DNA of 64,000 bases from a virus. Lineage: Duplodnaviria; Heunggongvirae; Uroviricota; Caudoviricetes. The notes below the pieces were generated by a model. That model was given only the letters and a program-made list of their open reading frames with translations. It was not told the origin of the DNA and ran no database searches. The stretch's first letter is position 1. The number at the start of each line of letters is the position of its first letter. A program made the position numbers and the translations under genes. The stretch is taken from the IMG/VR virus record IMGVR_UViG_3300006204_000001. One strand, given 5' to 3'. This document shows positions 1,206 through 61,069 of this stretch, piece by piece.

Positions 1206-2681
1206 TTAAGCGTTCACCACTTTATTCTTGTAGAATATTACTATTCTAGCCGACCCCAATTTTGAAATCAAATCGGCACCCATACCATCCAGATGTGCAT
1301 TTGCCATAACCAATGTATCTATAAATTGAATGCCCACCTTGTCTTCTTCTGTATTAAAATTAATATCAGGATAAAAAGGATACTCTTTTCCATTAAATAT
1401 CAATTTAATATGTCTACGTGTTGATGATACTCTTATCTTATTAAAATAAATACCCTTGTCTGTACCAACTGGGTATCTGCTAACCATAATATGACGTTTT
1501 TCACATACATCAACACATGCTAAATATAATAGATCCGTTACAGTCATTGCTCTATTTAGAACTGTACTTGCATTATTAGGTAATATCACTTTACCTTTCA
1601 ATATCACAGAGCATTTCTTTACTATAGAGCCTTTTTGTAATGGAATTTCAACATCAACAATTAATTTTTTAAATCTATTATCTGGATTTAAAATATAATC
1701 ATTAATAATCTTTTTAATATTTTTTTCAGAAAATTGAGCTTCAGCATCTTTTATACTACCTACTACTTCTCTATTCGTTTCTTGATCATAGAAAACTATT
1801 GCATTTGGATCATTAATAATTTCTCTTTGAAAGAAATTAGTTAACCATGCTTCAATAAATGGATAGAATAATGAACAACAATGTGATATTGGTACTGCTG
1901 AATGATCCATATCTACCATACTATCTTCTAATCGCTCATTATTATAATTATTAGATGATATAACTGCTCTAGTACCATAATCAACTGATTTACCCAATAG
2001 ATTCTTTCTAATCAAACCATGTTTTTTTGATATTTGATTTTTGAAATAATCTATTATTTCTACTAATGTTTCTTGTACTTTATATTGAGTAGAATATTGT
2101 CTATATGCAAATATTCCTCCCTCTGATAATAATGCTACTGATCGTAATAATTTTAAATATAAATCATTTAATTCATTTACATGATCACTATTATCAATTG
2201 TACCTGCAATAGTTACATCACGATATGCAGGAGGACATACTAACATTTTATCAATAAAAACATCATCTCTTTTTAATGTCTTCATTAATTCTTTATTAAC
2301 TTGATTGGCTGATTTACTTTTACTCCAATCAATTTCATCCCAATGTTCATATAATTTGTCTATACCTGTCCATCCTGTTTCATCTTCAACCATTATGCCA
2401 TCGCGTATAATAAATTTTCTTTGACCTGAAATACAATATGTGATATTACGTTGCATTCGTTTAATTACTTTATCATATAAATGAGGATGAATAAAATGAC
2501 GTTTTAATGTAATATATGCAAATGTACTTCGTCTATCACTTTTAGATTGACCAAATATATCATGTGATAATAATCCACCTGGCTCAAATGTCATCTTATT
2601 TGAAAACAATCGCACAGACGTTACTTCACGTAATTTATTAACATCAATTAATGTATCAATATCTAATAAATCAATTTTCAT
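1206..2681 (-). CDS. multisubunit RNA polymerase beta' subunit, N-terminal fragment (split rpoC-like)
   Basis: Colinear similarity to bacterial RpoC: HDIFGQ ~ [20 protein letters not shown] ~ [23 protein letters not shown]..NDLY ~ [38 protein letters not shown] ~ [32 protein letters not shown] ~ NRAPTLHRLGIQ; ends 21 aa after catalytic-loop position; RBS AAAGGAGATAAAT. Confidence 0.8.
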   Translation of the reverse strand: [491 protein letters not shown]

Positions 2682-2799
2682 TATATTTATCTCCTTTCTT
2701 TAATAAACTTTATAATCACTGTAACTAAATAAGAGCAATATAAGATAGGACCATATGGTCCTATCTTATATCACATGAATTGAGAGTTGTGAGCATATA

Positions 2800-3273
2800 T
2801 CAAATATTAGAAGTTGTCTTTTTCATTTTGTAATCATAAACAACTTTTTCAATCATATTGTCTATAATTACTTCTAACTGTTCCTTTCCACCAATGATAG
2901 TCAATAGATCACTATCATCATCTTTAAGTTGAGGTGGTAATGATGCCATTATACATTCTTTAGCAGCATCTAATAATATCTGCTTTTGTTCATCAGTAAG
3001 CTTAGGACATTCAATTTTAAATTGATCTGCTGTTTGCATATTTGAACCTACTGCTGTTTCTACGATCTTTTGTAATTGCTCCAAAAGCAATGTTTTAATT
3101 GTATTCTTTTGTGATATAGATTCAAGGTCATTTTTTGCAATGATAGAATCTACAATTTTCTTTCCATAGCTTTTAACTATTACGACTGCACTTGAAGCTA
3201 ATGCTAAAAGCAATGGAATCATAATTGAATTAATTAAAATATCTAATACTTCATTAATAGTTTGAGTTGACAT
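2800..3273 (-). CDS. hypothetical membrane protein (one N-terminal TM helix)
   Basis: ORF with RBS GAAAGGAGATAG; hydrophobic IMIPLLLALASSAVVIV segment. Confidence 0.5.
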   Translation of the reverse strand: MSTQTINEVLDILINSIMIPLLLALASSAVVIVKSYGKKIVDSIIAKNDLESISQKNTIKTLLLEQLQKIVETAVGSNMQTADQFKIECPKLTDEQKQILLDAAKECIMASLPPQLKDDDSDLLTIIGGKEQLEVIIDNMIEKVVYDYKMKKTTSNI

Positions 3274-3335
3274 AGTTACTATCTCCTTTCTATACTTTGT
3301 TATATATTCGTATATGAAATATAAATTATAAATCT

Positions 3336-9312: not shown

Positions 9313-10746
9313 ATGAATTTAGATGTTTATAATACTCATATGGAATTATATCCATATACCAAATTAGATTATCCTGTAATAGAAAAATGGTATACAGCAA
9401 CAGATAAATTTACAGGAGAAGAAAAACCATGTGGCTATATAATAGAAGATGGTAAATTATTTTTACCTAGAGGAACTTCAATTAGTAGATTGGAACATAT
9501 GTGTGATGTGAAAGCTAACTATATAATGGAGAGTGATCCATATGAAGAAATGGATTATCAACATTCAGCTTTATATGATCCTAGAGATAAATTACAAGAA
9601 GATAGTATAAAATTTCTCCTTGAAACCACAGCACAATCCGGCCTTAACTTGAAAATGGGGCTTGGAAAGACATTTGTAACAACATATGCTAGTACTAAAT
9701 TAAGAGAAAGAACTTTAATTATCACTCCTAATGACAGTTTAAAAATGCAATGGATAAATACGTATTTAAAAATGTTTGATTATAGAAGTAAACATTTAAT
9801 GAACATAACTGGTTCAAATGTTATGAATGATATTTTAGAAGGATTAATTCCTCCTAGAGATGTTTATTTTGTTAATCATCAAACATTACAGAGTTTTATG
9901 ACTTCTACTAATGGATTTACTCTTCATAATTTCTTTAAAAAATTAAATATAGGAATAAAAGTATATGATGAATCACATTTACAGTTTAACAATATTCTTA
10001 TGATAGATTTTTATTCTAATACTAAAAGAACTTGGTATCTTACAGCTACTTTTGATAGAAGTGATAAAACAGAATCTGCTTGTTTTAAGAAAGCATTTAC
10101 ATCAGTAGTAACATATGGAGAAATAGAATCTAAAGAAGATGAAGTTAAACATATTTTATATCATGTGGTAAACTTTAATAGTCATATATCTCCTAAAGAT
10201 AGAGCATCTGTTATTGGATATCAAGGATTGACAAGTGCATCATATGGTAAATATGCTTTTATGAATGATACTAATGAAACTGCTTATAGAATAATTCTTA
10301 TGATATTAAATATGATGAAAAATGTTGAAGGTAAAACTTTAATATTTGTACCTTTAATAGATGCGGTTGATAAAGTGGTTAAGAAATTAAAAACTGACTT
10401 TAGTGAAAAAAGTATAGCTGCATACCATAGTAAAATATCTAAGGATGAAAAAGAATCAGCTAAAAAGAAAGATATTATAGTATCTACAATTAAATCATGT
10501 GGAACTGGTCAAGATATACCAGGGTTACGCGTAGTAATATGTTTAGATCCCATAGCATCTAAAGTAACTGCAGAACAAGTTATTGGACGTATTAGACCAT
10601 ATAAAGTAGATGAGGAAATAAAAGACACATATTTCTTTGATTGTGTAGATGTATGTATTCCTCCTCTCAATTTTTGGTTTAGAGCAAGATATAAAAAGAT
10701 ACAGACATTAGTAAAAGAAAGCATAAATCTTAATTTAGAAAAATAA
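9313..10746 (+). CDS. superfamily-2 (DEAH/SNF2-like) helicase
   Basis: Motif I MGLGKT, motif II DESH, motif VI QVIGRIRP. Confidence 0.75.
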   Translation: MNLDVYNTHMELYPYTKLDYPVIEKWYTATDKFTGEEKPCGYIIEDGKLFLPRGTSISRLEHMCDVKANYIMESDPYEEMDYQHSALYDPRDKLQEDSIKFLLETTAQSGLNLKMGLGKTFVTTYASTKLRERTLIITPNDSLKMQWINTYLKMFDYRSKHLMNITGSNVMNDILEGLIPPRDVYFVNHQTLQSFMTSTNGFTLHNFFKKLNIGIKVYDESHLQFNNILMIDFYSNTKRTWYLTATFDRSDKTESACFKKAFTSVVTYGEIESKEDEVKHILYHVVNFNSHISPKDRASVIGYQGLTSASYGKYAFMNDTNETAYRIILMILNMMKNVEGKTLIFVPLIDAVDKVVKKLKTDFSEKSIAAYHSKISKDEKESAKKKDIIVSTIKSCGTGQDIPGLRVVICLDPIASKVTAEQVIGRIRPYKVDEEIKDTYFFDCVDVCIPPLNFWFRARYKKIQTLVKESINLNLEK

Positions 10747-13273: not shown

Positions 13274-16200
13274 TTATGTTAAATCATATATTACTGGATT
13301 TGGAATTATTCTACTTATTTTATTTTTTGTATTTATTTTAAGCATACTTCTTCCTGTCACATGATATGCAGCATTATTGAGTATATGAACTAATACCCCA
13401 TATTCATCATATAATCTTGTAGATAACCCATACCAATCATCATTAGTAAGTACTGTATGTTCTGGGAAATATGGATTATCATTTATTTCATCACCCCATA
13501 CTTCATTCATTATATCAATTAACATTTGATTTGTTATCGGTATATATCCAAAATGTCTAAATGTTAGAGTTTGTTCTACTATAGCCTTTCCTTCCAATGT
13601 AGGTTGATTAATAACTAGAAATTGATATGATGGATTTTCTAAATCATTAATTGGATAATCTTCAGGATTAGTTCTTAATAAAACATCATCTTCTATATCA
13701 ACATTAGGTGGATAGTTTTTGAACTCAGGATGATCTTCTGATACTTGTTTCCATATAGGAGATAATAAATATTCCTGTTCTTCTTCAGTATAATTATCTT
13801 TACCTAATCTACATTCTAATGCTGCATCTAAATATGTATCATAATCCCAACCATAATATGGTCTGCCATATGTCGATGTTTCTACTTCATAAAAATTATC
13901 ACTAAAATATTCATTTGAATCACGATTGATTTCTATAATTTCAAAATTCTTTAATGATTTTAATCCATGAAGAATTAATTTAGTTGGTGTGATAATAGTA
14001 ACTTCATCATGCAGTAATTTTCCATTAACCCAAAATTCAAAATATTTTTTGTTTAATGGTTTATTAAGTTTACCTTTGAGATTAATAAAACCATGAGAAG
14101 GTATCCTTCGTTTTACATATACAGATCTCATAGGATATGGTGTTACACATATATTCATATGCTCATATCTTCTATATAAATTCATAAATGTTACATCTGT
14201 TCCATTCTGTGTATTTACAACATGTAGTGTTGGTTTATTCGTAGATGGATTAATTAATGGAAACCTACCCTTTTCTGTTAATATATAAACTCTATCCTGT
14301 GGCACATTTTCATTTTTGATATGAAATGTAGGATTCATTAACCATTTAGGTTCTATGAAAGTATATCTCTTTGGTGTCTTGTCTAAAATTATATCATATT
14401 CAAAAGGTCTATTTAAATCAAGTTGAGATATAATTTTAAATTCTTTTGGTAATGGAGCTAATGGGTTAATTACATTATGTATATAACCATCACCAAACAC
14501 TTCTACCTTTTCAGTTATAAACTCTATGACTATTATAGCCATTTGAACTTCAGTCTGAAAATCTTTTTGAAACACATTAAATTCTAATGCTATATTTTCT
14601 TCTGGTGCATTAATAAAATGAATTGGTTTAAATGTTATAATATGACCATCTTTTTTATAATCAGCTGTTACTATACCAAATACAGTAACATCATATTCTG
14701 AATTATAACACCATACAGGACCATCATGGAAATTAGCTCCTGATTTGCCAATCAATGATTGTAATATTCTGGTATTAGTTTCCCAACCTTGTGTTTCAGA
14801 TTTATCATCTTTAAATCTTACTTCAAATAATGATCTATCTAATATATCTTCATAACGTCCTGCAGTCCTATTATAAACTTTAATATCTTCTAAATGTAAT
14901 TCATTTTTAAAATGCATATAATTAGCTATCTTAAAGTCCATTTCATAACCTAAGAATTCCCCATTTCTATCAAATCCTATTGTATATGATTCGGTTTGTT
15001 CATATGGGAATAGTTTACGTATTCTAAGATGCCTTCCAGTATGAACTAATGTATCTATAGCCTGTTTATTAACTTCACCTACTATAGTAGTTTTAATACT
15101 AAATATAGCATCTTTCTTCAATACTGCATTTTTCTTTAATGTTTCAGGTGTTTTATTTAAGAATAATTCCATATCATATGAGTAAATTCCCTCTTCATAA
15201 TAAAATAATTTAAAATTGAATATTTTATTATCAATATCTTCTGTAACAATTAATTCCCATTTCTCTGAATGTAAATCTTCCCATTCATGTTTTGTCCAAT
15301 TAAATACAGATATATCATTTACTGTAATATCTTTGATATATGATGTATTATTCATTATCTTTGGCATAGAAGTTCCTATTACTCTTCCCTCTAATATAGA
15401 ATTTTCTATATTCATATATGTATTCTCTGCTCTCCAATCAGCAGAAGGATATTGAGCTTTCATAGTAGGATAATCCTGATAACAATCTATATTCATCCAA
15501 TCAACTAAGAAATGATTCCAACTCATATCACATATCTCAGGTAAATCGTATACAATATATCCATTAGGTGAAAATGTTCTTACCGTATATAATGTTCTAT
15601 GGCTATTGTTAGTTTCATCTGTTAATACTATAACAACCTTTCCAACTTTAATCCCAGGATAATCATTAATATGTTTAGGTATATCATTATAAGTTGCTAC
15701 TGTAATATCTCCTTTTGTCATAGCTGAATTTAATATAGATCCATTATGATATTTTTTATTTGTGAGATTATTTGTTTCACCTTCTGAATTATGGATTCTT
15801 TGTCTTACTATAGATTGATATTCGCCTTTTAATGGTTGATTAGGGGGTAACCTTTTTTCATCTGATATAATATTATCAGAGGGAGGTATTACATTTTGTA
15901 TACCATTCCATACACGCTCATCCTTTGTATTAGAAACTGAATTATCTATTCTACTACCTTGATACCATCCCTCATCAGAATCACCATAAGTAGTTTTATC
16001 TGTAGGACCTGGAATACTGACATCAGGATATAAAAATTTTTCATTTCTATCTCCACTTTCAGTATCAGTATATCGTTTAGTAGTAATAGTAATATTTGCA
16101 AATGATGATGTAGCAGGTTTTGTAATTCCTTCTTGTGGTAATAAATCATATTTACAATTATGAAATTCATCATCTATGTTATTCAATGTATCATTAATAA

Positions 16201-19200
16201 CCTTTGCTTCATTACAATCAGTGCTTTCATCAATATTAATATTTTCATTTATTAATGCAACTTCTTTAATTCCTTTAAAAGGAGTACCATCCAATTCAGT
16301 TACTCTTAACTTTATTGCAAATTCTCCTACATCTACATAGATATTTTGACCTACTGCATAACCTGCTCCTGGATCTTTTACATCTAATCTATCAAGTCTA
16401 TATATAAAACTATGGGAATTCGTTATATCAAGTTTTGATTTTTGTAATTCCATTAATTGATTTGCATTAATATAAATAGCATCAATACCTCTTGGTTGCA
16501 TATGATTCTCAGCCAATTCATCTATAGTAAAATGTCTGTGAATATAATTTGTTATCTGGTTACCTCCAAGAAATACATCATATTTGATATTCAAATCATG
16601 TATATTTTCAAATTTATACATAAATAAATCATTTTCATTGAATTGAGGTAATGTTAATATATCTGCTTTTAATGGATTAAAATAAGTCATATCGCCTATA
16701 CCTATTTCATATGAATATGCATCTATTTTTAAACCATTACCAATTCCTACTCTGGTTATAGTTTCTCTAATACCCCAAATTAAATATGGTATAGCATAAT
16801 TCATCATTGGTTCTACTTCTACTACTTCACCATATTCAACTTTCATTACTTGTAATAATATTACATCATTCAATATTATGTCTTCCATATCATGGATTTC
16901 ATTACCATTTTTATCAGTTGGAAGTTGAGGTATAATTTCTACTATATCACCTACTCTATATCCTATTCCTGATTCAGCTATACCTGCCTTATGGAACATA
17001 TACCATTTATCTTTTTGCAATTCTGGTTTATTTTTGATATTCTTTTCAAGTCTTTCTATAGTAGGATCAATCATAGTTGATATTGTACTAGGAATTGATA
17101 TTATTTCTGATTTTATAAATGATATAAATTTAATAATATTATTAAATTCATCTATAAAATTTTCTATATCAGGATTTATTTCAAAAATATCTAATACATT
17201 TTCTTTATAAAATACAATACCTAAATTAACTTCAGTTAATATATCAGATAATTTTTTACCGTTTTCCCATGTAGTACCATTACCATAGAATTCAGATAAT
17301 TTATTTCTGATAAGTTTAAATTTATCACTGTAATAAATAAAATCTTTATTTACTAAATCATTATTATTTGCATATTTATAAATGTCTTTAATAAATTCAT
17401 TTATTTGTGATAATAACTCTCCTATAGTAATATGATTTCTTCTTTCCATAAATCGATTACATGATTCTATTAATCCAGATAATGGTTGTATCAATTGATC
17501 AACATATTGTTTACTATTATTTGATATATGAGTACCAAAATCATCTAATATATTAGACCATTTAGTTTCTATATCCGATAATGTTTTTAAATCATGCTCG
17601 AATGTATTGTTATTATATGAATTATATGATTTCAAATTCTTTCTGATTAAATATAATCCATTCTTTATAGACATAATAATTTGATCAACTATCTCATCAT
17701 TGATAATTACAGTATGTTTAGAAGAAATTGCCTTAATCATAATTCCCATTCCATCACCAGAAGTTATACTATCATAGATATATTGTTGCCAGCATGGATC
17801 TCTAAAAGATGTTGTTCTATAATTAACTTCTGATATAGATGATGCAATACAAATATTATTCTCTATAGAATCAATTTGATACGTACCAAGATTTTTTATA
17901 AATACATAATCACCTTCTTGATGTTTAAATCCGCCTGATACCATTTCTATTTTATCTATTTCATATATATCTGAATATGTTGGACACTGTATATCAGGTT
18001 TATATTCTATATTAACACTATCCATATATTCCATTAATACAGTTAAAGTTTTATTAATTTCTTCTATATTAATTAAATATTTATTTTCAGGATTAGTAAA
18101 ATCTATAATAGATAGAAATACTGATTCTTCTGTATTTATAAATTCCATCCATTTACTTATATTATTCTGAATATCATCATATGCATTATTAGCATCTTTA
18201 GCATTATTTATGCCTGCTATATATGATAATGCATAAATTATCTTAGACAAATCAGCAAGTATAGTAGATAAATATGATTTTTCAGTATCACTGATATTAT
18301 ATTTTTCTAATTCAGATAATAATGTTTCTATAGTATTAATGCATTCTAATAACTCTTCTCTATATCCTTTATATCTTTCTATTATGACAATAAAATCATT
18401 ATAAAGCATATATGAGATTTGATCTAATCTGTCTATAACAGTTTTATCTACTTCATAATCAAATTTTTCGTAGAAATTATTGATTGAATCTTTAAATTCA
18501 ATAGTATCTGTCATTACATTATCTAGTGAAGTTAAGAATTCATCTATCTCTTCATATGTATATGATTTTTCTGAATCAAAATTACCATATAATATTGCAG
18601 TAGATTGAAATAATTTATTACGTTTTTCTTTTACATCTACTGACCATGGATCATTAAATTGATTAATATGACCTAATAAAGATTTATCATTAAGATTTAC
18701 TTTATTATAGACAAAATATGTCTCTAAATCATTAGTAACTTTCATAAATTTTTCCATATCAAATGTTTGAATAATATCTGACATATGATCTATATGGAGT
18801 TTTAATTCTATTATAGAAGTTACTATATTTTCAATATCCATTCTCTTTTGAATATATACTTTCTTTTCAATAGTATCATTATAAATATTCATTTGCATAC
18901 CATTGATTGCATCTGTAAGAGTTTTATGTAAAGACAATAATCTTATTATGATATTAATATCATCTATAGAATAAATATCAAGATCCAGATTAGCAGTATT
19001 ATCTATTACTTCTTTCATATTATTTTCCATAATAGAAACATATTCTTTCAAATCTGTTATATTAGATATATTAAGATTATAAGATTCCCTATCTAACATC
19101 TCTAATATCCATTTTATAATTAAATTTATTTCCCTTAATTCATTTTTGATATCAATTTGTGTTTGTTGTAATATAGGTAAAAATCTTTTAATATCAAAAG

Positions 19201-27433: not shown

Positions 27434-27557
27434 TATACTATTATTTCCTCCTATTGCATCTATTATAAATATAATATATAATTTAAGATTATATATTATT
27501 ACAATATAACGTATAATTATATACAATATTAATATTAAATTTAGGAGGTACTTAGTA

Positions 27558-35500: not shown

Positions 35501-38500
35501 AAACTAAAACAACGTAGAGAAGAACGTAATGCATCAATTAAACGTGATATGGATCGTTATAGTTTATTTGGTGGATATGCCGAATATAATAGAGAACTAG
35601 ATGCAAAACATGCTACAAATAAGAATGAATTAGAGCAATATATAGCTGAAGGAACTCCTAAGATTGTAGAAAATACAGAACAAACAAATGAAATCTTAGA
35701 TAATCTAACTGATGTAAATAGGGAATCAAATGAAGCTTTACAAAATTTAGATCGTAATAGTAGCGAGGTTGGTTCTCTATTTACACATGATCAAGGTATT
35801 CATGATAAATTAGATAAATTATATGCATTCTTAACTGGTAATACATCTACTAATAAACCAAGTAATACTCCTGAAGGTCATTATAAATCAGATAAAAAGG
35901 CAGATGATGATAGTTTAAAGAATGCATTAGAAAATAAATCATCCAAAGCACCTACTTTAATAGGTGGAGGAAATCAATCTGACCCTATATTAGGTAGCGC
36001 TCTAGGTTCAATTTCTACTATTGCAGCTAATAACGGATTATCTAATGATGAGGCACAAACTACAAATGAGACTATAGCTGAATTATCTAAAGATAAACCT
36101 AATAAAAATTCCATATCAGCTAAATTACAGAAGATTATTAATATTAATAAAACAAAATCGGATGAGGATGATAAAGATAAAAAAAAGAAAAAATCTTTAT
36201 TCTGGGATATATTAGGAAAGATTGGTAATTTTGCAGGAGGATTTCTTGATAAACTTCCTTTAATTTTAGGAGGTATTGCTGCATTTAAACTATTTTGTGG
36301 TGATTTTGAAGGTGTAAAGGATGTTGTTAGTAGAATTGGTAATGGTATAGATTCTATAGCTAGCTTTATTACAGGAAAATCAAAGGATGATGGCACAACA
36401 GCAGGAATGAATGCAGTAACATCATTAGCAGATATACAATCAGATAGTCCAATGAGTTATGCTATACCTGGAGCTGAATTATATCATAATGAACGAGATT
36501 GTGCAGGTAACAGAATTAGAAATCAAAATGCTACTAAAGCAAAGAATACTATTCTTATTGGAGCTAATCTAAAGAATGCTTTTATGAATAAATGGCATGG
36601 TACTAATAATTCTAGTTTTACATCTACAATGGCTAGAACTAGAGCTAGTATATCAGGTAGAATTAATAACATTTCGTCTAGTGTTTATAATAAACTTGAT
36701 AATAGTGTATTAGGTAAATTTGGATTAGGAAGAAAAATAAAGAATAAAGCAAGTAAGATTAGAGATAATAGTGCAGCGGCACAAGCTAATCAAGATCAGA
36801 TTGCAAATAACAATGTTACTACAGTAGATAATTTGAAATCTAGAGTAGGAACTGCAGCTAGCTTAAGTTTCTTATCAGGAGCTGCTGGTTTAGGAGCTAA
36901 AGGCATTGCTAAAGCATTTGGTAGAGATGAAGAGTCTCAAGACAGATGGAGTAGAATTGGTTCAGGTGGTACTGCATTAGTATTAACAGCTAATCATGGT
37001 ATGTCTAAACTTACTGGAAAGAAATCATTAATTGATTTATTCAAAGAATTAGTAAGTAAGTTATTTAAATACTTAGCTGGAAAATTTAAAGAAAATGGTA
37101 TACTTAAAAAATGTGCATCTAAGGTAGATGATATCTTTACTGGATTAGATACAAAAATATTTACTGGTCTTAAAGATAAGATGATAGATATTGTATCTAA
37201 GAAATTATTAGAGTTAGGAGTAGTATCAAGTGGTGAACAAGCATTATCTGCAGCTACATTAGGTATACCAATTGTAGTTGGTGGCATTAGTGGTTTTATA
37301 GATGGTATATGTGGAGTAGAACATTTGTTCAGTGTACTTCCAGGTGATGCAGATGGAACTATGAAAACGATATCTATCTTATTAAATACTGCATTAGGTG
37401 CAGCCGCATTTGTACCAGGTGTTGGTTATGCTGTAGCTTGTATTGATATTATTGATGCTATTATGTCAGCTATTCCTGTATTTAAAGGAAAAGGTTTAAC
37501 ACAATATTTAGCTGAGCTTTTATATAATATTATCAATGGAGCAAAGAATTTAGTTACTGGAAAGAAAGGTAATAAATTAAAAGAAGCACATGCTGAAGTT
37601 ACAAGAAACACAAAGGCTTATAATGAAAAATTTGGTACTAACTTAAGTGAATCTGATATTATTGATGCTACGACTAATAAAGGTTGGTGGGATGCTTTAT
37701 GGCATGGTAAAGCGTATAAAGGTGATAATGGTTTACTTGTTACTGATAGAGCTGGAAATTTCCTTGGAAAAGGTGGTATTACTAATGCTTTATTTGGTAA
37801 TAACAAAATATATGAAAGTGATACCGAAGGCAATGTCTTAAAGAATCAATATGGAGAAGCTGTAGTTAAAACTGATAAATACGGTCTCGGATCATACAAA
37901 AATAATATGAAGATCGGTGACTATGCTAAGTTTGGATTTAATTCAGCTAAACGTTTCTTTACAGGTGGTGAAGTATATAAGACTGATGAAAAAGGAAATG
38001 TCATATATGATGAAAATGGTAATCCAATTGTAGATCATAAGGAATCAAATATCTTTACGAGAGTATTTAAAGAAAAGAAATTTTTAGATGAAGCTACAAC
38101 ACAGTCTATCAACACTACTAAAAGTTTTATCAAGAATATATTTAAGAAAGAAACAATTAAAGATGAGAATGGAAATGAAATTCTTGATGAAAATGGTAAA
38201 CCTATAGAAAGAAGTAAAGCTGGAAATGTTATTGTTAAAGCTACTAATGTTATTAATGGTGCATTATTCGGAGGAGTAGGAGGTGTATTTAAAGCTCTTA
38301 AGAAGAATGAAAAAGAGCAATATGAATTAGACGAAAATGGTAAACCGTTATTAGATGCAGATGGTAACAAAGTTAAGAAAGGAACACTTGGTTCTGTAAT
38401 TACTAAAGGATTAGGTAAGATAGGAAATACAGCATTATCATTCTTAACTGGTGGAGCATTAAAAGATACTGAGTTAGTTAAAAGTGTTAAAAATAGTAAA

Positions 38501-44958: not shown

Positions 44959-46824
44959 TTGTTAAAAAGTAGTAATCCTACATTGTTGAATGTAACTTAT
45001 ATAAAACCTAATAAAGAAGATGGTACAAAAGAATCTTTTGAAGTAATATATAAAACTGAAACAGGTGAAGTATATAGATCAGAAGAACCACCATTAGCTG
45101 ATATATTTTTCGTGAAACCTGAATATAGAAATTATAATTATAATAAACCTGAAGAACGAATGGAACGCATGGAAAAAGTTCGTGTTCCTATTAGTAAAAT
45201 TCGTTATAGAATTGCTGAAGAAATAGGAGAAGAAGGACAAAAATTTATAAGTCAATGTTGTCAGGAAAAAAATTTCTCTAGGTTAAATGAATTATATGCG
45301 TGGCCATATTCTTATGGAGCTGATTTTCAACCTGAATATTATTTCATGAAGAATTGGTATGAAAAATATGAAATAGGAACTCCAAAAATTACAACGGCAT
45401 TTCTCGATATTGAGTGTGATTCATTAGAGAATGAGATTGATATGGATAATATTTCTGTTACAGCATATTCTCCTGTCAATTGTGCTACAGTAATTTTGGA
45501 TGATACTAAAGAAGCATGGACATTTATACTGAGACCACGTAAACCATCTGAATTAGGTAAAAGCAAAGAAGATTATATTAGAGCATATAATTTATATAAT
45601 AAACAAAAATATGATCATGAAAATTTAATGAATAATATGAATGATTTCATAGATAAACTTCATAAAACTTTTGATGGAAAATATGGTTATATAAATTATC
45701 ATGTGAGGGAATTTTCTGATGAAATTGAATTAATAGCTGATATATTTAGATTAATTAATAAGCGTAAACCAAATTTCTGTTTATGTTGGAATATGAGATT
45801 TGATATTCAGTATCTTTATTATAGATTACAAGCCTTGCATATTAACCCAGCTTCTATAATGTGTCATCCTGACTTTAAGAATAGTAAACCAAAATGCTAT
45901 TTTAAAGTTGATAGATCAACTTATCAATTGGAAAAACAATATGACTACTTCTATTGTAGTTCATATACTATATATATTTGCCAAATGAGAAATTATGCTG
46001 CTATACGTAAATCACAGCATAAATTACGTTCTGTATCTTTGAATGCTATAGCTGATATAGAATTAAAAGATAAAAAAGTAGATTACCCAGAAGAATCTAA
46101 CATGACTGAATTCATGTATAATAATTGGCCTTTATTTATTTTATATAATGTGAAAGATGTATTACTCCAGTTAGGAATTGAACGTAAAACAAAAGATACT
46201 ATGACATATTATATGCGTTCACAAGCGAATCTTACTCCATATAATAAAATATATAGAGAGACACATTTGTTACGAAACGTTCGTGAGCAGTCATTTAATA
46301 AACAAGGATGGGTTCAGGGTAATAATATTAATATCATCCATATGCGTGATGTAGATGAAGTTGAAAAAGCTTTCTATAATAATGATGAAAATGAAGAAGG
46401 TAATGAAAGTTCATTTAAAGGTGCAATAAATGCAGATCCGGTATGGAATGATAGGATAGGCATGAAGATATTAGGTATTAGATCAAATAATATCTTTTCA
46501 AATCCAATGGATTATGATATGGGAGCATTTTATCCATCAATAAAAATTGCATCTAATATGGATCCAATTACATTGTTATATAAAGCATCATTTGTAAATG
46601 AAGAATTTATGAGTGGTGAATTTATCAATAGATCTTTAAATCAACAATATGTAGAAAAAGATAAGAAAGGTAAAACACGTAAATTAGATTTTACTGGTGA
46701 AGCAGTAAACACATATGTTAGTGGTAATATATTAACATTTGGAGTGAATTATCTTAATCAACCATCTATAACAGAAGTTTTGGCTGCTTGCAGAAAGGAA
46801 TGTAAACGAAAAGAATTAGTATAA
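44959..46824 (+). CDS. family-B DNA polymerase, N-terminal fragment (3'-5' exonuclease domain + palm motif A only)
   Basis: Exo I FLDIECDS, Exo II NMRFDIQYLYY, Exo III YNVKDVLL, motif A DYDMGAFYPSI; no motif B/C (KxxxNSxYG / YGDTDS) before stop; probable TTG start 9 nt after GGAGGT. Confidence 0.6.
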   Translation: MLKSSNPTLLNVTYIKPNKEDGTKESFEVIYKTETGEVYRSEEPPLADIFFVKPEYRNYNYNKPEERMERMEKVRVPISKIRYRIAEEIGEEGQKFISQCCQEKNFSRLNELYAWPYSYGADFQPEYYFMKNWYEKYEIGTPKITTAFLDIECDSLENEIDMDNISVTAYSPVNCATVILDDTKEAWTFILRPRKPSELGKSKEDYIRAYNLYNKQKYDHENLMNNMNDFIDKLHKTFDGKYGYINYHVREFSDEIELIADIFRLINKRKPNFCLCWNMRFDIQYLYYRLQALHINPASIMCHPDFKNSKPKCYFKVDRSTYQLEKQYDYFYCSSYTIYICQMRNYAAIRKSQHKLRSVSLNAIADIELKDKKVDYPEESNMTEFMYNNWPLFILYNVKDVLLQLGIERKTKDTMTYYMRSQANLTPYNKIYRETHLLRNVREQSFNKQGWVQGNNINIIHMRDVDEVEKAFYNNDENEEGNESSFKGAINADPVWNDRIGMKILGIRSNNIFSNPMDYDMGAFYPSIKIASNMDPITLLYKASFVNEEFMSGEFINRSLNQQYVEKDKKGKTRKLDFTGEAVNTYVSGNILTFGVNYLNQPSITEVLAACRKECKRKELV

Positions 46825-46924: not shown

Positions 46925-48484
46925 ATGGCAAAATATCAAGATGATGTATATGACCATTTAAAATCTGATATTGATAAAATTAGAGTAAGATTTAGGCAAT
47001 ATATATCATATTCAAATGAACAAGGAGCAAAGTCTGTAGTAGACGAGATAATTTATAATGCTCTTGATGAATGTAAGAATCCAAGATCTCCAGGTGATAC
47101 TATTCATATTGTAATGGATGATAGAGATGGATTTATTACTGTGACAGATAATGGTAGAGGTATACCTACTAATTTATTAGAGGAATTATTTACATCATTA
47201 AATATGGGATCTAATATTAATACATCAAATAAATCAGATTTAAAAGTAGAAATATTGGGTCAAAATGGTACTGGAACACTTGCTATATGTGGTTTAGCAG
47301 AACATGTAGAGATTACTTCATATAGAGGTGGTACAGAAAATATTAGTAAGACATTAATATTTGAAGAAGGAAAAAAGATCCATGAAGAAGAGCATAAATG
47401 TGATAAAAATAAACATGGATTATGTATTAAATATAAACCTTCTAAAGTCATGGGTAAAAATACTAAAATAGTTTGGGATCCAGTCCATAAAGGATTATTA
47501 GATTTACAGTATTTAAATCATAATAGAATAAAGATAGATTCTGTTCATTATGATAAAAATGGAGATTATACTGAAGAGAAATATAAGATCTTAAATTTTG
47601 ATGATATTTTATTACGTAATGATCCTGAGTCAATTACAAGTAGTAAAATATTGATCAATATTAAAGATGATAATATATTAGAAGAATTTGAAGATATGTC
47701 TGTAAAAAGATTTTTAGATATGGATATAGCATTTGCATATGTAAATAAGTTAAATCCATATATAGATAGTTTTTCAAATTCAAACAATACGGTTGATAAT
47801 GGCGATCATTTAGATGGTGCATTGGAAGCTATTTGTAGATATTTTCAATTAGCAACAAAGAATATGCTATCAGAGAAAGAAAAAGAATCTCTTGATATCA
47901 AATGGGATGATGTTAAAACAGGATTATCTATAGTAGTATCTTTACGTACTGATTATGAAAGATTATATACTGGACAGACTAAACATAAAGTTGTTAATGG
48001 AGATATTAGAAAGATTATAATTAATCTTACAATAGAGGCGTTAACATCATATTTTAGTAAGAATAATAGTCAGTTAAAAGAATTATGCATGATAGTAAAG
48101 ATGAATGCAAAAGTACGTCGAGAAGGTGATAAAGTACGTACAGCAGTAATCAAAAATACAATAACTAATTGGTCATCATACAAGATGAAAAATTATGATC
48201 CGTGTACAAGAAAAGGAGTTAAGGAATATAAAGAAATATTTATTATTGAGGGAGATAGTGCAAAAGGTAGTTTAAAGAATGCTAGATTTCCTGAATTTCA
48301 AGCACTATTTAGTATACGTGGCGTTAGCTTGAATGTTTTCAAAGCAACTATAGATCAAATATTTGGTCCTAAAGGTAATAAAGAATTTACTGATTTAGTA
48401 ACTATATTAGGATGTAATGTAGGACCTAAATTCGATTTAAGTAAACTTCAGTTTAGTAAGATTATTATAGCATCAGATGCGGAT
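46925..48484 (+). CDS. type II DNA topoisomerase ATPase subunit (GyrB / T4 gp39-like), exon 1
   Basis: GHKL ATPase motifs EIIYNALDE, DNGRGIP; TOPRIM EIFIIEGDSAKGS .. IIIASDAD, then the ORF reads KLSMSA-stop in the intron. Confidence 0.8.
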
Positions 48485-49691
48485 AAATTATCTATGTCCG
48501 CTTAAAATTCTTTTAATTGCTGGGAGTTCTTGTTAAGTTAATTCAACCGCGGTATTATAGTAATATAATATGCAGCATATATCATAATGGATATAGGATG
48601 GTAAAATCGAATTAAATAGAGATAATCAGCAAATAATTATATTGATTCTAATTTTAATTATAAATTACTAAAGAAAGGAGGTATATAATAATATGAAATA
48701 TAATAAATCTATGTTAAATAATGCATATAATGATTTATTACAAGAAAAAGATATTAGATCTATGGAATTATTTGATAAACATTATTGTGAATTATCAATA
48801 GCAGAAATAGATAAATTAGAAAAATATATGTATGATTTATCTAATCCTATATGGAAACCTATAATGATAGATGGTAAAGATAGTGGATATAAGATTAGTA
48901 ATATAGGTACAGCAGTTGATTCAAATAATAATGAATTAAAATATTATCAAAATTCATCTGGTTATTTAGTTATCTGGATTCATATAAAAGGTAAACGTAA
49001 TAATGTACCTAAATCTATTCATAGATTAGTAGCAGAATCATTTATTCCTAATCCTGATAATAAATCAGAAGTGAATCATATTAATTGCAAACAAAATATG
49101 AATTGGGTTGGAAATCTTGAATGGGTAACGCATGAAGAAAATATACGATATATGATAAATTGTGGTAATCAAGTTATAGGAATGAATCATAAAAACTCTA
49201 AGTTTACTGATGAACAAATACATTTAGTTTGTAAAATGCTTGAAAATCCTAATAATGATATTAAAACTATTTCAGAAAAAACTAAAGTATCACTTAGAAC
49301 TATTCAAAATATAAGATTTTATAATGGGTGGAATCATATAAGTGGATTATATAATATAAATAGATCTAAGTATGTTAAAGGTCCTAAATTTAGTTATGTT
49401 TCTAAAATAATATCCGATATGGTTAATAACGGAAAAACAAATTCTGAAATACGAAATAAATTGCATGAATTAGGTTTAGATTTAAATATAACAAGTAAGA
49501 GTATTAGTGATAGAATATATCATATACGAAAATTAGAATCAAATAAAACTTCATCGACTATCGAAAAGCTATGATATAGGATTATTAACCATATCAATAT
49601 AGTTAGTAGAGTATACTTATAATAGTAGAAATGAAGGACATTATGAAGATATAGTCACAACATTTATAGAAATATAAAGATAAGATAATTG
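48485..49691 (+). mobile_element. putative group I intron (about 1.2 kb) carrying an HNH homing endonuclease ORF
   Basis: 5' exon ends GCGGAU; intron nt 12-17 GUCCGC can form P1 with a U.G wobble at the splice site; intron ends in G; splicing joins ..IIIASDAD to VDGLFIRSLLMAFFFR, recreating the conserved TOPRIM DxDxDG and GyrB continuation. Confidence 0.65.
48693..49574 (+). CDS. HNH homing endonuclease (intron-encoded)
   Basis: HRLVAESFIPNPDNKSEVNHINCKQNMNWVGNLEWVTHEEN = HNH_3-type motif; RBS AAAGGAGGT. Confidence 0.8.
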   Translation: MKYNKSMLNNAYNDLLQEKDIRSMELFDKHYCELSIAEIDKLEKYMYDLSNPIWKPIMIDGKDSGYKISNIGTAVDSNNNELKYYQNSSGYLVIWIHIKGKRNNVPKSIHRLVAESFIPNPDNKSEVNHINCKQNMNWVGNLEWVTHEENIRYMINCGNQVIGMNHKNSKFTDEQIHLVCKMLENPNNDIKTISEKTKVSLRTIQNIRFYNGWNHISGLYNINRSKYVKGPKFSYVSKIISDMVNNGKTNSEIRNKLHELGLDLNITSKSISDRIYHIRKLESNKTSSTIEKL

Positions 49692-50612
49692 GTGGATGGA
49701 TTATTTATTAGAAGTCTACTTATGGCATTCTTCTTTAGAGTATTACCAGAAATTATTTTGGATGGTAGATTATATATAGCAGAACCACCTCTATATAGAG
49801 TTGATAATCCAAAAGATCCATTTGTAATTAATAAAGAAGATTATAACAATCGATATGTAAAAGAGTGTATGAAATATTATCAGATAGGATATCCTATTAT
49901 AGATAATGGAGTAATAGTTGACGTTAATATTTTAAATAAAAATGATATTAAAGAATTATTATCTGATACATCATCTTATGTTAAAGACATAGAATTATTA
50001 GCTAATCATTATAGGATTAATGAAAGATTATTTGAGATAATAATTGAAGAAGTAGCATTAATGAATATCGATGTCAATTTATGTGCAGATATACAGAAGG
50101 ATATTATTGATAAAATCAATATACAACATCTTGTGACAAGAATACAAGCAGAATTTCCAGAAGTATATTATGATGACAAATTTAAGTTAATACGAGGATC
50201 AATAAATACTGTTAGACAATTAATTGAATTATCACCTAACATAATTAAGAAGTCTAAAGTAATAATTAATTATATTATAAAATGGAAAACTGCACAGACT
50301 AAATTAGTATTAAGAGATAATAAAACAAAAGCAGAAAGATTATTATCATTATTAGAATTATTAAAAGTTTTAAGAAAATATCAACCTGATATCAAGCATC
50401 GTTTTAAAGGTTTAGGCGAGAATGATACAGATGATATACGAAAGACTATTATGGATCCTAATACTAGATCACTTATAAAAGTAAATATAAGTGATATAGA
50501 AAATGATGAAAAAATCTTTCAGATGTTAAGGGGTGGAACTGCACAAAATGCATTAGATAGAAAAAATATGATGCATAATTATAGTATACCAGTCGAGTTA
50601 ATTGATACGTAA
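49692..50612 (+). CDS. type II DNA topoisomerase ATPase subunit, exon 2
   Basis: VDGLFIRSLLMAFFFRVLPEIILDGRLYIAEPPLYRV ~ GyrB [37 protein letters not shown]. Confidence 0.8.
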   Translation: MDGLFIRSLLMAFFFRVLPEIILDGRLYIAEPPLYRVDNPKDPFVINKEDYNNRYVKECMKYYQIGYPIIDNGVIVDVNILNKNDIKELLSDTSSYVKDIELLANHYRINERLFEIIIEEVALMNIDVNLCADIQKDIIDKINIQHLVTRIQAEFPEVYYDDKFKLIRGSINTVRQLIELSPNIIKKSKVIINYIIKWKTAQTKLVLRDNKTKAERLLSLLELLKVLRKYQPDIKHRFKGLGENDTDDIRKTIMDPNTRSLIKVNISDIENDEKIFQMLRGGTAQNALDRKNMMHNYSIPVELIDT

Positions 50613-57028: not shown

Positions 57029-57478
57029 ATGGATAATACTATTATTGGTTATGATACAACATTTGAATTGAACGAATTTAATCAACCAAGGATACGTAGT
57101 GAAATAGAAACAGTAAAAAATACTATTCTTTTTATTTTATTTGCAAAACCTGGATCATATCCATCTATACCCTATTTAGGTATGGATATACAAAATACTC
57201 TATATTCTTTTTATGATGAATTAGATACATCTAAGATGGAAGATGATTTAATTCAACAATGTGAAGCATTACAAGTATTTTTTAATAAAGGAGATATAGG
57301 AATAAAGAAAGTAAAATATAAAGGAAAAATACCTTCATTACTTATTCATATAGAAGGTGAAGAAACATATCCTGAAGGTTATATGAAGAATCCAATAAAT
57401 AATATTAATCGTTATTTAATAGGATTAACTTATAATGAACTAAATGAAATGTTAGTGAATATTAATAGTGAAATATAA
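57029..57478 (+). CDS. baseplate wedge protein, gp25/GPW-like
   Basis: VKNTILFILFAKPGSYPSIPYLGMDI resembles the GPW/gp25 core (I..I..IL.T..GER...P.FG); RBS AATGAGGTGATT. Confidence 0.5.
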   Translation: MDNTIIGYDTTFELNEFNQPRIRSEIETVKNTILFILFAKPGSYPSIPYLGMDIQNTLYSFYDELDTSKMEDDLIQQCEALQVFFNKGDIGIKKVKYKGKIPSLLIHIEGEETYPEGYMKNPINNINRYLIGLTYNELNEMLVNINSEI

Positions 57479-58795: not shown

Positions 58796-58799
58796 TATA

Positions 58800-58836
58800 A
58801 TGAAGAGGACATAATGTCCTCTTCATTTATTTTTAT
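58800..58836 (+). terminator. terminator TGAAGAGGACATAATGTCCTCTTCATTTATTTTTATTTT
   Basis: 12-bp stem + T-run. Confidence 0.65.
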
Positions 58837-58915
58837 TTTAATGATATATTTTTTAAATGTATATAGAACAATCTATACATAAAATAAATCAAAAAATGGA
58901 GGTATAAAGAATATT

Positions 58916-61069
58916 ATGTCAGATAACGCCTATGAAGAGCTTGAAGTCTACGATTTACCTACTATACGTACAATCGAAGATTGTGAACGTGAATTTCCTG
59001 ATGTCATAATTATTTCAAGGTATGATACATATGAAAAATTTGATGAATTGTATTATAAGGTTTACTACGCATTATGCGCATGTATAGAAATAAAGGAATG
59101 CGCAGGATATCCTATAAAATTCAAATTTTATCCAGATGAAGATCATATTTATAGTTTATCTATGGCTAAATTCTTATTGAATTTAAATGCATGGAGACCA
59201 TTAATAGAATTGCATAGTCTTAGTGATTATTATAAAAGACAGATAGAAGTTCTTGATGAAAGTTTCATAGTTGGTACAATGATGTCTGATTCAATGAGAA
59301 TGGGTTTAGAATCAAAAGTATTAAAAGTATTAAATGATTATGGAATTGATTTTAGTAGAACTTCTATATTGTTAAAAACAGTTATTGAGAGATATCAAGA
59401 AGCATCTATCGAGTTTGCTCTTACACGAGGTAGTAGTGTTCTAACATATGAAAGTATATTTCTTAATGACTATAGGACATCAGAAAAAATTAGAGAATTA
59501 AATAACTTAAAAATACCACAAAGTTTACAGACATCAGAAGTAGAAGATGTATTACGTGAAAAGACTAATGAACTTATTACAGAACTAGGTAGAACAAAGA
59601 ATCCTATATGGTATATAAGTAAAGCTGGTAATCACATAAAACAAAAACAGGTACAGGAATTATATATTTCATATGGTCAGATTCCAGATGTATCAGGTAA
59701 TGTTATTCCTTATACAATGCAAGGTAATGGTTTTTCTACTGGCTATCTTGATCCTGCTACATATTATATTGCTGCAACTGGATCTAGATTATCAGCTATT
59801 ATGAATAAAGCACATATGGGTGAAGCAGGTTATTTATCACGTAATTTGATATTAGCTAGTAGAACTATGACATTATCTAGAACTATGTATGATTGTGGAA
59901 CAAAACATATGTTACATTTAAAAGTAACTGATAGTACATTCTTACATAGATTAGAGAATAAATGGTATTGTGAGCATTTAGGTCAGCCTTTAAGATTAAT
60001 TCATTATGCAGATTGTAAACATCTTATAGGTAAAACTATATGGGTACGATCACTAATAACATGTGCTGGTGGAAATGAAGTATGTCATGTATGTTATGGT
60101 AATGATAGTAATCTTGTTATGAATATGCCAGGTATGGCTATATTTAATACAGAGGTGTACTCGGAGCCTGTTGGACAAAATATTCTATCTACAAAACATT
60201 TATTATTTACAGCTGCTAATAAAATTGTATTCAGTAATTCTTTCAATAAATATTTTAAATATGATTCTGGTGATATATATATGAAAGAAAAAGATGAATG
60301 GGATTTAAATATATCTGCAGAAAATTTTACTATAAGAATAGAAATAGAAAATGTAATTCCTATCAATAAACAAGACTTAGCAGAATATAATACATTTGGT
60401 AATCATATTGAATCACCTTTCTATATTTATAATAAGAAAGATAATACATATGATAAAATTGAGATTATAAATTATGAATCCATGTTTATTGATGCAACAT
60501 CTATGAAGAGTTTCAAAATAATTACTGATAAAAAGAATAATAAACAATATTATGAAATTCCGTTAGATGTTTTATCATCTGATCTTGAAGGTAGATTATT
60601 GTCCATTGATATTAAGAATAATGGATTAACAGATAATCTTTATATGATCATGAATATTCTTAATAAAAATGCAAATAAATATGAAACCTATGATCAATTA
60701 GCACAGGAATTCTTTGAAATACTTATTAATTCAGGAATTAGGTGCAGGCATGTGCAAGCAGAAGTTATTCTTAATAGACTTATTAGAGATGCTAATAATC
60801 TTTATAATAGACCTGACTTCTCACAATTCAAACAACCTGAATACAAGATACTTACATTGAATCAAGCTTTATTAAATACTAAAGCTCCTACTATAGGATT
60901 TTCATATCAAGAAGTTAAAAGACAAATTTTATCAGATGCATTATATGAAGATAAAGATGGATCATCATTCTTGGATCCTTTATATGCAGATAAAATTAGT
61001 ACGGATCATTTAAGAGAGTTAGTACAAAAGATAAGTGAAAGGAGAAAAATGAGACATGCAACAGCCTAA
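58916..61069 (+). CDS. multisubunit RNA polymerase beta' subunit, C-terminal fragment
   Basis: [22 protein letters not shown] ~ RpoC [49 protein letters not shown] ~ [42 protein letters not shown] ~ [37 protein letters not shown]. Confidence 0.8.
   Translation: [717 protein letters not shown]

Follow-up and report, generated by a model that had tools for sequence, protein, structure and literature searches.

Most of what is known of jumbo phages that encode multisubunit RNA polymerases (msRNAPs) comes from the phiKZ-like group and from a few AR9-like isolates. AR9/PBS1 (Takahashivirus), the S6-like phages of Staphylococcus, Yersinia phage phiR1-37 and Listeria phage LPJP1 carry two msRNAPs built of fragmented β and β′ homologues, a virion enzyme (vRNAP) and a non-virion enzyme (nvRNAP). 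In the phiKZ-like Chimalliviridae, a jumbo-sized genome encodes a vRNAP with AT-rich promoters, an nvRNAP, a family-B DNA polymerase (PolB) in split form and a homologue of tubulin. Here we compare with these systems a 64,000-nucleotide (nt) stretch of viral DNA, IMG/VR record IMGVR_UViG_3300006204_000001 (hereafter the window, with position 1 as its first letter). The window very probably represents about a quarter of a ~289-kb uncultured jumbo-phage genome with two phage-encoded msRNAPs of fragmented β/β′ type, and this genome would form a deep, separate branch nearest to AR9/PBS1, the S6-like phages, phiR1-37 and LPJP1 and not nearest to the Chimalliviridae.

The protein of open reading frame (ORF) 58916-61069 was encoded exactly on JGI contig Ga0081180_1000003 (289,060 bp; contig positions 242,532-244,685), which also carried the proteins of ORF 1206-2681 and of the tubulin gene. 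The window aligned to this contig with 0 mismatches across 48916-64000, and with one single-nucleotide polymorphism and one T6/T7 homopolymer difference across 1-12681. Independent ENA and Logan assemblies with window proteins spanned 261-289.5 kb, up to 289,525 bp, and the same gene order recurred on many independent JGI, ENA and Logan assemblies. IMG/VR relatives of the phage lay on contigs of 210-292 kb, and one relative was present in an NCBI metagenome-assembled genome. The original prediction, made from the letters alone, had taken the window for part of an msRNAP-encoding jumbo phage, which agrees with the ~289-kb contig and its vRNAP and nvRNAP pieces. It had also named a genome under 100 kb as an outcome that would speak against it; this objection does not apply, because the window proteins are found on 289-kb contigs (289,060-289,525 bp) and their relatives on contigs of 210-292 kb. 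A genome above 200 kb is a trait of msRNAP jumbo phages (group 1 of Iyer et al. 2021).

The GC content of the window was 23-32%, close to the predicted ~25-30%. Among its ~49 substantial ORFs, a GGAG-type Shine-Dalgarno core was found at -21 to -4 for 35 of 49, and the full AGGAGG for 9 of 49, so that "strict AGGAGG" usage had been an overstatement. A tRNA scan of the window and an Rfam scan at the gathering score were both empty. When 25 kb of the window was compared by megablast with 50,697 phage records, nothing matched, and thus no cultured phage is close at the DNA level.

Three RNAP pieces were found in the window, and AR9-group phages gave the top tblastn matches for all three, at an identity of only 26-38%. 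ORF 1206-2681 (minus strand, 491 amino acids), the left-hand piece, matched phrog_2986 (E of 1e-73) and carried a β′ motif aligning to eukaryotic RPA1. It had no Pfam match, and its matches to cellular RNAPs in the PDB were marginal. With AR9 g145, annotated as "virion RNAP subunit, beta' N-terminus", it shared 32% identity (E of 8e-62). Its best tblastn matches to virion RNAP β′ came from Bacillus phages BpSp, Goe21, AR9 and PBS1, Staphylococcus S6-like phages, Yersinia phiR1-37 and Listeria LPJP1. The identity to the vRNAP β′ of the AR9 group was 30-33% (E of 1e-49 to 5e-65), as opposed to ~24% (E of 2e-11 to 6e-16) for phiKZ-type phages. The label "phiKZ/AR9-like" given to the locus is therefore appropriate in its AR9 half, and its phiKZ half fits worse.

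At the opposite end of the window, ORF 58916-61069 (plus strand, 717 amino acids) is the C-terminal half of nvRNAP β′. It matched phrog_3015 (E of 4e-53) and AR9 g154, "non-virion RNAP subunit, beta' C-terminus" (26% identity, E of 2e-34). The best solved structure was 7S00_D (E of 2e-33), aligned to the last residues of the chain, which we took as the g154 product from the same residue range in both alignments. The best cellular β′ reached an E of only 3e-6, and the RNAP fragments were thus not closer to cellular rpoC, an outcome that the prediction had named as one to look for. Fragments of β′ had been predicted at both ends of the window, and both are indeed β′, but they are not halves of one protein. 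The two pieces come from different enzymes, the left one from the vRNAP and the right one from the nvRNAP, and this gives direct support for two msRNAPs.

The third piece, ORF 57494-58216 (plus strand, 240 amino acids), is a C-terminal fragment of vRNAP β; the claim that no β subunit fragment is visible in the window was wrong, because this ORF matches β C-termini. A separate C-terminal β piece has been described as the third β polypeptide of virion RNAPs (Iyer et al., PMC7824862). The ORF matched phrog_3233 (E of 9e-43) and the RNAP part of AR9 g078, "virion RNAP subunit; HD family phosphohydrolase" (E of 6e-23), and its homologues included phiR1-37 g203, a "phage structural protein", and "virion structural proteins" of Erwinia phages. 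A PDB search with the single 240-residue sequence was empty, and pairwise phmmer against the AR9 nvRNAP subunits was unconvincing. A profile was built of 10 homologues from the window clade and from Bacillus, Staphylococcus, Yersinia, Aeromonas, Erwinia and Pseudomonas phages, and in the PDB it matched solely the C-termini of bacterial RNAP β, including E. coli β residues 1160-1310 with GEMEVWAL...KSDD (E of 1e-4). An assignment as a C-terminal β′ piece resembling SPN3US gp244 was considered and rejected on the grounds of these exclusive β matches and of the description by Iyer et al. (PMC7824862). The fragment had 469 metagenomic homologues, the best 120 of which were 72-77% identical and located on contigs up to 285 kb. 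In Bacillus phages, an HD domain is fused to this piece (PMC7824862, PMC7598289), and AR9 g078, Goe21 and SA1 have an N-terminal extension, whereas the window ORF opens directly with the RNAP part. Pieces of two paralogous fragmented β/β′ sets, virion and non-virion, are thus present within the window, and PHROG, PDB and AR9 annotation agreed for the three pieces.

A candidate early promoter was found by k-mer enrichment in ~6.3 kb of intergenic DNA, which returned ATATATTCT and ATGATATAT and gave the motif T[T/G]ATATATT[C/A]T-N6-purine. The 11-mer T[T/G]ATATATT[A/C]T had 17 exact matches in the window compared to 5.4 ± 2.5 expected, and 0 of 100 shuffles reached 17. Thirteen of the 17 lay in the ~10% of the window DNA outside ORFs and faced a start codon downstream, in most cases at a distance of 34-100 nt. 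These are the copies at 5069-5079 (minus), 6094-6104 (plus), 9271-9281 (minus), 12659-12669 (plus), 23041-23051 (plus), 24292-24302 (minus), 40964-40974 (plus), 43249-43259 (plus), 46879-46889 (plus; 46 nt upstream of the topoisomerase II gene), 51139-51149 (plus), 54244-54254 (plus), 61586-61596 (plus) and 63561-63571 (plus). The copies at 27471-27481 (minus) and 27489-27499 (plus) fall within the primase ORF if this is taken to begin at its TTG, and one-mismatch variants were found at ~58842 (plus; upstream of the nvRNAP β′ C-terminal half), 6085 (minus) and 12635 (minus). In two relatives, L007 and L008, all nine matches (9/9) were intergenic. A purine followed 7 nt after the 9-mer core in 24 of 25 intergenic copies, as opposed to 17 of 30 copies inside genes.

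The annotation of 33 early promoters in AR9 gave the consensus AAATATATATTAT-N6-G, to which the window core ATATATT(A/C)T-N6-purine is almost identical. Experimental mapping identified this AR9 sequence as the promoter of the vRNAP (PMC5312081). A conserved AT-rich motif of ~10 nt before presumed early operons is a trait of msRNAP jumbo phages, and the window motif is a candidate promoter of this kind. It was present upstream of the primase, tubulin, topoisomerase II and α-CTD-like genes and of many orphan ORFs, and upstream of nvRNAP β′C as the one-mismatch variant. No copy was found in the motif listing of the window upstream of the vRNAP β′ gene, either giant ORF or the gene for a virion protein like AR9 g112. 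This distribution is consistent with the partition expected if the vRNAP transcribes early genes and the nvRNAP late genes. By analogy with AR9 and phiKZ, the vRNAP would travel inside the virion, enter the cell together with the DNA and start transcription at T[T/G]ATATATT[C/A]T-N6-R, and the nvRNAP would then transcribe the late genes. For the late promoters of AR9, the consensus AACA-N6-TA/G has too little specificity to be of use in 26%-GC DNA. An early core of AR9 type that survives at 30% protein identity offers a handle on how a sigma-less vRNAP recognizes DNA.

The listed ORF 1206-2681 extends to 1206 because its frame reads through into an intron-like insertion, and it ends inside this insertion and at no subunit boundary. 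The first exon of vRNAP β′, at 1271..2681 (minus strand; 470 codons + 1 nt), ends with ...HLDGMGAD-F, a position that was placed with the uninterrupted gene of L007 and with exon 2 of the source contig. L007, a 246-kb contig, has one uninterrupted β′ ORF of 976 amino acids, which reads ...NLEGQGADYDGDQ..., has GADYDGDQ as its catalytic motif and extends for ~460 more residues. On the source contig, the window β′ ORF is followed by a GIY-YIG gene on the opposite strand and a 442-residue ORF with the upstream-extended frame ...VDGDQVSERG.... The insertion interrupts the ADFDGD catalytic codons; window positions 1..1270 (minus strand) hold its 5′ 1270 of 1351 nt, and its 3′ splice site and exon 2 lie ~80 nt past the left edge. 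If GAT-T (window 1271) is joined to TT-GAT-GGA-GAT, 1351 nt drop out, the universal Mg-binding motif GADFDGDQ is restored and a protein of 935 amino acids results, with the predicted exon junction ...GGTGCCGATT|TTGATGGAGAT.... There is a U at the 5′ exon end and a G at the end of the insertion, and the group I core element UGAAGAGAUAGUCC is found at window ~900-1060 (minus strand). The relative L008 has an ORF-less insertion of ~420 nt within the same motif, located 7 nt upstream of the window site, and this insertion passed the Rfam Intron_gpI gathering score (50.7 bits, E of 5e-12). From the restored motif, the splice-site letters, the core match and the comparison with L007 and L008, window 1-1270 is regarded as intron-like, and the insertion is probably a group I intron.

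A GIY-YIG homing endonuclease gene at 29..895 (plus strand) lies inside the β′ insertion and antisense to its host gene. It matched the homing endonuclease families phrog_5123, 7168 and 314 (E of 2e-9 to 2.5e-8) and, weakly, Pfam SegE_GIY-YIG. Its own promoter would fall past the left edge of the window. AR9 has a second intron in g145, with a Hef-like endonuclease, at about the same catalytic-motif site, and the AR9 alignment picks up again at residue 473 of the spliced window protein. Beside the β′ gene of the 289-kb relative L008, a 407-residue ORF (8676-9899, minus strand) ends with ...GRKIVGRHGSICMFWPM. It looks like a vRNAP β piece broken off within the catalytic motif GRHG(N)KG, and this hints at one more intron placed in a catalytic site.

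The topoisomerase II gene was similarly interrupted. Exon 1 of this GyrB-like gene (46925..48484, plus strand; 520 codons, ending ...SDAD) matched Pfam DNA_gyraseB, HATPase_c and Toprim. Exon 2 (49692..50612, plus strand; 306 codons) resumes with VDG... and matched Pfam DNA_gyraseB_C (E of 2e-13) and the GyrB of AR9, g024. Between them, a 1207-nt insertion (48485..49691, plus strand), an apparent group I intron, interrupts the Toprim motif DADVDG and carries an HNH homing endonuclease ORF at 48693-49574 (plus strand, as topoisomerase II; phrog_59, E of 2e-30). The insertion is missing from two sibling genomes, L002 and L003. The window gene is identical to the intact L002 gene up to 48484, and its two exons together give the same 826 amino acids (520 + 306). 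The insertion is preceded by a U, ends with a G and contains UGAAGAUAUAGUC; the predicted junction ...GATGCGGAT|GTGGATGGATT... restores SDADVDG. Rfam Intron_gpI gave a partial core match at 49644-49677 (24.1 bits, E of 0.0012), which is below the gathering score. The insertion is best read as a group I intron rather than a subunit split, and the "split topoisomerase" of the prediction is one 826-residue gene, intact in siblings. Of the "several homing elements" predicted, two homing endonuclease genes, GIY-YIG and HNH, were found.

Both insertions resemble the endonuclease-bearing group I introns of phages (T4 td, nrdB and sunY; AR9 g145, g189 and g078) in their location within the most conserved catalytic codons (ADFDGD and DADVDG), the U and G splice-site letters, the conserved core of AAGAUAUAGUC type found in each of them, the HNH or GIY-YIG ORFs and the intron-less sibling alleles; the β′ insertion differs by its antisense GIY-YIG ORF. 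The Rfam gathering score was passed by the ORF-less L008 intron alone and by neither window insertion, because ORFs interrupt the model, and the two were recognized via intron-less alleles and relaxed scans only. Both would be spliced out of the mRNA, restoring the two catalytic motifs. Insertions in ADFDGD and in the Toprim DxD with intron-free sibling alleles show clearly, in natural genomes, how homing can target catalytic codons, and they caution that a gene that looks "split" or "dead" in a genome of this kind can be an artefact of annotation. Introns with homing endonucleases in RNAP genes are a further likeness to the AR9 group.

In msRNAP jumbo phages, β′ is split into two polypeptides (PMC7824862, PMC7598289), and a split of the β′ of each RNAP after the double-psi β-barrel domain is one of their traits. 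For the vRNAP, this split was not found in the window clade, where β′ is a single gene of ~935-976 amino acids. The spliced window protein covers both AR9 g145 (residues 1-525) and g264 (residues 532-932), two genes that are ~100 kb apart in AR9. The nvRNAP β′C ORF, as expected for a split β′, begins as a separate gene. When 1.84 billion cluster representatives were searched for vRNAP β′ homologues, 1039 were obtained. Among the best 150 of them, 88 end 49-69 residues past the DFDGD motif, which corresponds to the split form, and one more protein of the split class ends 199 residues past it; 17 are fused, with 334-696 residues past the motif (mostly 445-466); 44 are fragments or lack the motif, and 1 stops at the motif. 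Fused forms thus made up ~16% of the complete homologues in this set. They were scattered in a neighbour-joining tree with at least 10 state changes, in which the proteins of the window, L007, P0121 and P0123 formed one fused clade; the tree is crude (913 alignment columns for 480-residue inputs), and we conclude from it no more than that a single clade of fused forms is not obvious. The scattered fused forms (17/150) therefore suggest that a fused β′ is a recurrent minority state that extends beyond the window phage, and this qualifies the textbook view that β′ is always split at a common site. In two further metagenomic homologues, P0252 (2211 residues) and P0211 (1170 residues), the vRNAP β′ N-terminal part lies at the C-terminal end of a far larger protein (residues 1684-2159 of 2211). 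This arrangement recalls the virion RNAP of Thermus phage P23-45, which is reported to be fused to the tape measure.

A tubulin/FtsZ-superfamily GTPase of the phage TubZ/PhuZ type is encoded at 27558..28724 (plus strand; Pfam Tubulin, E of 7e-13), in agreement with the predicted tubulin homologue. Its PHROG matches included PhuZ (E of 8e-11), with an unnamed family as the best. The best PDB matches were to TubZ of Clostridium phage c-st (4XCQ and 3V3T, E of 5e-11 and 3e-10), and no PhuZ entry was found among the 60 PDB matches listed. Among cultured phages, Bacillus phage G gave the sole match (25% identity, E of 4e-5). The gene was kept at 33-63% identity on related contigs of 210-292 kb, including the L007 contig with the fused β′. 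With c-st TubZ and the PhuZ of phiKZ-like phages, the window protein shares a tubulin/FtsZ GTPase domain encoded by a large phage. The c-st match, however, spans the GTPase domain only (residues 28-174), and no adjacent TubR-like partner or centromere repeats were recognized beside the window gene, whose neighbours are the primase and AAA+ ATPase genes. The AAA+ ATPase (28776..31178, plus strand; 800 amino acids) lies immediately 3′ of the tubulin gene, a pairing maintained in the sibling assemblies L024-L026. It matched Pfam AAA (E of 1e-6) and has a C-terminal module resembling Bcs1 and the proteasomal ATPases (Rpt), with Bcs1 in the PDB at an E of 2e-15.

Phages of the msRNAP jumbo group have been described as having no α and σ homologues. 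ORF 54765-55565 (plus strand; ~250-266 amino acids) encodes a protein with a bacterial RNAP α C-terminal domain (α-CTD) and a weak helix-turn-helix resembling σ region 4. Pfam RNA_pol_A_CTD matched above the cutoff (E of 3.6e-11) and Sigma70_r4 just under it (E of 5.9e-5), and the PDB matches were to the α-CTDs of 8I23_A (E of 1.6e-6) and 3GFK_B (E of 4.6e-6), which we take to be Firmicutes entries. The protein is a candidate transcription factor or host-RNAP decoy. The early-type motif at 54244 lies upstream of its gene.

When the ORFs of the window were compared with AR9, 15 of the 49 tested had a homologue there at E ≤ 1e-3, and the aligned segments were 24-40% identical. These 15 included the three RNAP pieces, the superfamily 2 (SF2) helicase, the primase, the exonuclease part of PolB, GyrB and one virion protein. 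The flanks of the window contributed two more, a recombinase of the UvsX type and a protein of the virion, a minor one. The split PolB N-terminal part, the SF2 helicase, primase, GyrB, SPFH protein and gp25-like wedge protein are likenesses to the AR9 group as a whole. The window clade differs from that group by a β C-terminal piece without the HD phosphohydrolase fusion, by the conserved tubulin and by the α-CTD-like protein, and from AR9 itself by one vRNAP β′ gene instead of two distant ones. In AR9/PBS1-like phages, uracil takes the place of thymine in virion DNA, with genes for Ugi, dCMP deaminase and dTMPase and none for thymidylate synthase and dUTPase. No Ugi, gp226 or other marker of uracil-DNA was found in the window, which is the smaller part of the genome, and no window ORF matched AR9 g226, the fifth nvRNAP subunit that reads the template-strand promoter, by tblastn; its gene may lie beyond the window.

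Several observations count against this placement or against parts of it. The proteins of the AR9 group are no more than 25-38% identical to those of the window, and AR9 has no homologue of 34 of the 49 tested ORFs. The tubulin had no match in the cultured AR9-group phages in this search, and the HD fusion is absent. The analysis covered ~84 kb of the ~289 kb, the window and its flanks. The temporal programme and the promoter function are proposed by analogy, and the partition into early and late genes is imperfectly clean because the genes for the gp25-like protein and the vRNAP β C-terminal piece are preceded, at 276 nt, by a weaker variant of the motif. As for a group I intron in β′, the Rfam Intron_gpI match of the insertion was weak and below the gathering score (19.6 bits, E of 0.03), and a GIY-YIG gene antisense to both host gene and insertion is unusual for a phage group I intron.

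Of the other explanations considered, the least unlikely is that the window derives from a nucleus-forming phage of phiKZ type (Chimalliviridae), with a chimallin shell positioned by a PhuZ spindle and a superficial likeness to AR9. The conserved tubulin with its PhuZ PHROG match (8e-11) fits this explanation, as does the co-occurrence of tubulin with msRNAPs in jumbo phages (PMC7824862), and the chimallin gene could sit in the larger part of the genome beyond the window. However, the RNAP pieces are far more distant from the phiKZ-like phages (~24-31% identity, E of 1e-6 to 1e-16) than from the AR9 group, with which all three scored 31-38% (E of 1e-22 to 5e-65), and the early motif of AR9 has the same core as the window promoter. 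Among the solved structures listed for the tubulin, c-st TubZ and not PhuZ came closest. Nothing resembling chimallin was seen at the sequence level in the ~84 kb, and no window ORF had a shell-protein-like PHROG match; the sole unannotated ORF of ~580 residues with an early promoter has just 6 homologues, unlike a core protein. A phage of phiKZ type is accordingly improbable. The same c-st matches at the top of the solved structures would instead suit a plasmid-like prophage such as Clostridium phage c-st, in which the tubulin is the TubZ partition motor of a low-copy episome, and the low GC content and common GGAG-type ribosome-binding sites would fit a low-GC host. No TubR, Par, integrase or repressor was recognized in the window, however, and a packaged vRNAP with host-independent transcription is a hallmark of the strictly lytic phages of this group (PMC7598289). 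The vRNAP β piece also had no relative in two scans of 185,579 species-representative genomes, and we consider a prophage of this kind very unlikely.

Cellular DNA, or a chimeric assembly with diverged rpoC fragments among bacterial genes, might explain why the β′ N-terminal part has no Pfam match and only marginal matches to cellular RNAPs. This explanation is effectively refuted by the best matches to phage RNAP families and the AR9 nvRNAP structure, by the gene order shared among independent assemblies, by the lack of tRNA and Rfam genes in the window and by the genes for baseplate, virion and tape-measure-like proteins that alternate with those for RNAP. The assignment to an msRNAP jumbo phage nearest to the AR9 group is thus preferred. 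It reveals a large, diverse, uncultured sister lineage of msRNAP jumbo phages with genomes of 210-292 kb, and it does not overturn current understanding. A bolder proposal, which we rate as rather unlikely, is that this abundant lineage represents a third lifestyle among msRNAP jumbo phages, combining AR9-related polymerases and an AR9-like early promoter with a TubZ-like tubulin beside an AAA+ ATPase, an unsplit vRNAP β′ and a free α-CTD/σ4-like protein. If so, the genome might be organized or segregated by tubulin without a chimallin nucleus, the α-CTD-like protein could be a new kind of initiation or host-takeover factor, and the unsplit β′ would bear on whether the "cyanobacterial-type" β′ split is ancestral.

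The replication genes of the window agree with those of msRNAP jumbo phages, for which a split PolB, a Rad25-like SF2 helicase, a primase and a replicative helicase are core accessory genes. The SF2 (ResIII/DEAD) helicase at 9313..10746 (plus strand) matched Pfam ResIII (E of 3e-14) and Helicase_C (E of 2e-10) and AR9 g156 (30% identity, E of 1e-44); such a helicase is phyletically linked to jumbo-phage RNAP subunits (PMC7824862). The DNA primase at 26453..27526 (minus strand) matched phrog_19847 (E of 2e-16) and the AR9 primase g225 (E of 7e-11). Both genes had been predicted, as had a split PolB, of which one part of two was found in the window. This N-terminal part, at 44959..46824 (plus strand), comprises the exonuclease domain and the palm motif A, with FLDIECDS (Exo I) and FYPS (motif A), and matched Pfam DNA_pol_B_exo1, phrog_3011 (E of 4e-44) and AR9 g132, "exonuclease and partial catalytic domain" (E of 3e-32). 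The PolB motif C (DTDS) occurred in no window ORF, and nothing in the window matched AR9 g152. DnaB, SbcCD, RNase H and terminase genes were likewise not found in the window.

Two giant ORFs of virion type had been predicted, and both exist, but evidence for this type was obtained for one of them only. The 2790-residue ORF (32540..40912, plus strand) matched Pfam Peptidase_M23 at residues 2099-2181 (E of 5e-16), PHROG endolysin and metallopeptidase families and, weakly, the AR9 tape-measure gene g204 (E of 0.001); its product is likely a tail tape-measure or cell-wall-lysing virion protein. The 2738-residue ORF (13274..21490, minus strand), with no promoter motif upstream, had no Pfam, PHROG or PDB match. 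The predicted gp25-like baseplate wedge protein was identified at 57029..57478 (plus strand), with a weak match to phrog_261 (E of 3e-4) and a pairwise match to the AR9 baseplate wedge protein g232 (E of 3.5e-9). An orphan ORF of 426 residues (41944-43224, minus strand), flanked by the gene blocks of the M23 giant protein and of PolB, gave no Pfam, PHROG or PDB match. Its start is likely 21 nt inside the listed ORF, with a strong AAGGAGG site.

Two further genes were interrupted by frame changes. ORFs 7472-8578 and 8569-9219 (minus strand) form one 582-residue ORF on the source contig, with an early-type promoter upstream. The window has T6 at 8581-8586 where the JGI contig has T7, which splits the ORF into 216 and 368 residues, and this difference is probably a homopolymer error or a strain variant. 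The 582-residue ORF (7472-9219) had just 6 detectable homologues and no family, and its structure model was too poor for use (predicted local distance difference test score of 47). The SPFH/Band-7 gene, a homologue of AR9 g181, is split into the overlapping ORFs 31333-31695 and 31686-32330 (plus strand) in the window and the JGI contig alike. The gene is intact, with 315 amino acids, in another sample (L025), and the broken copy is a frameshift or pseudogene variant.

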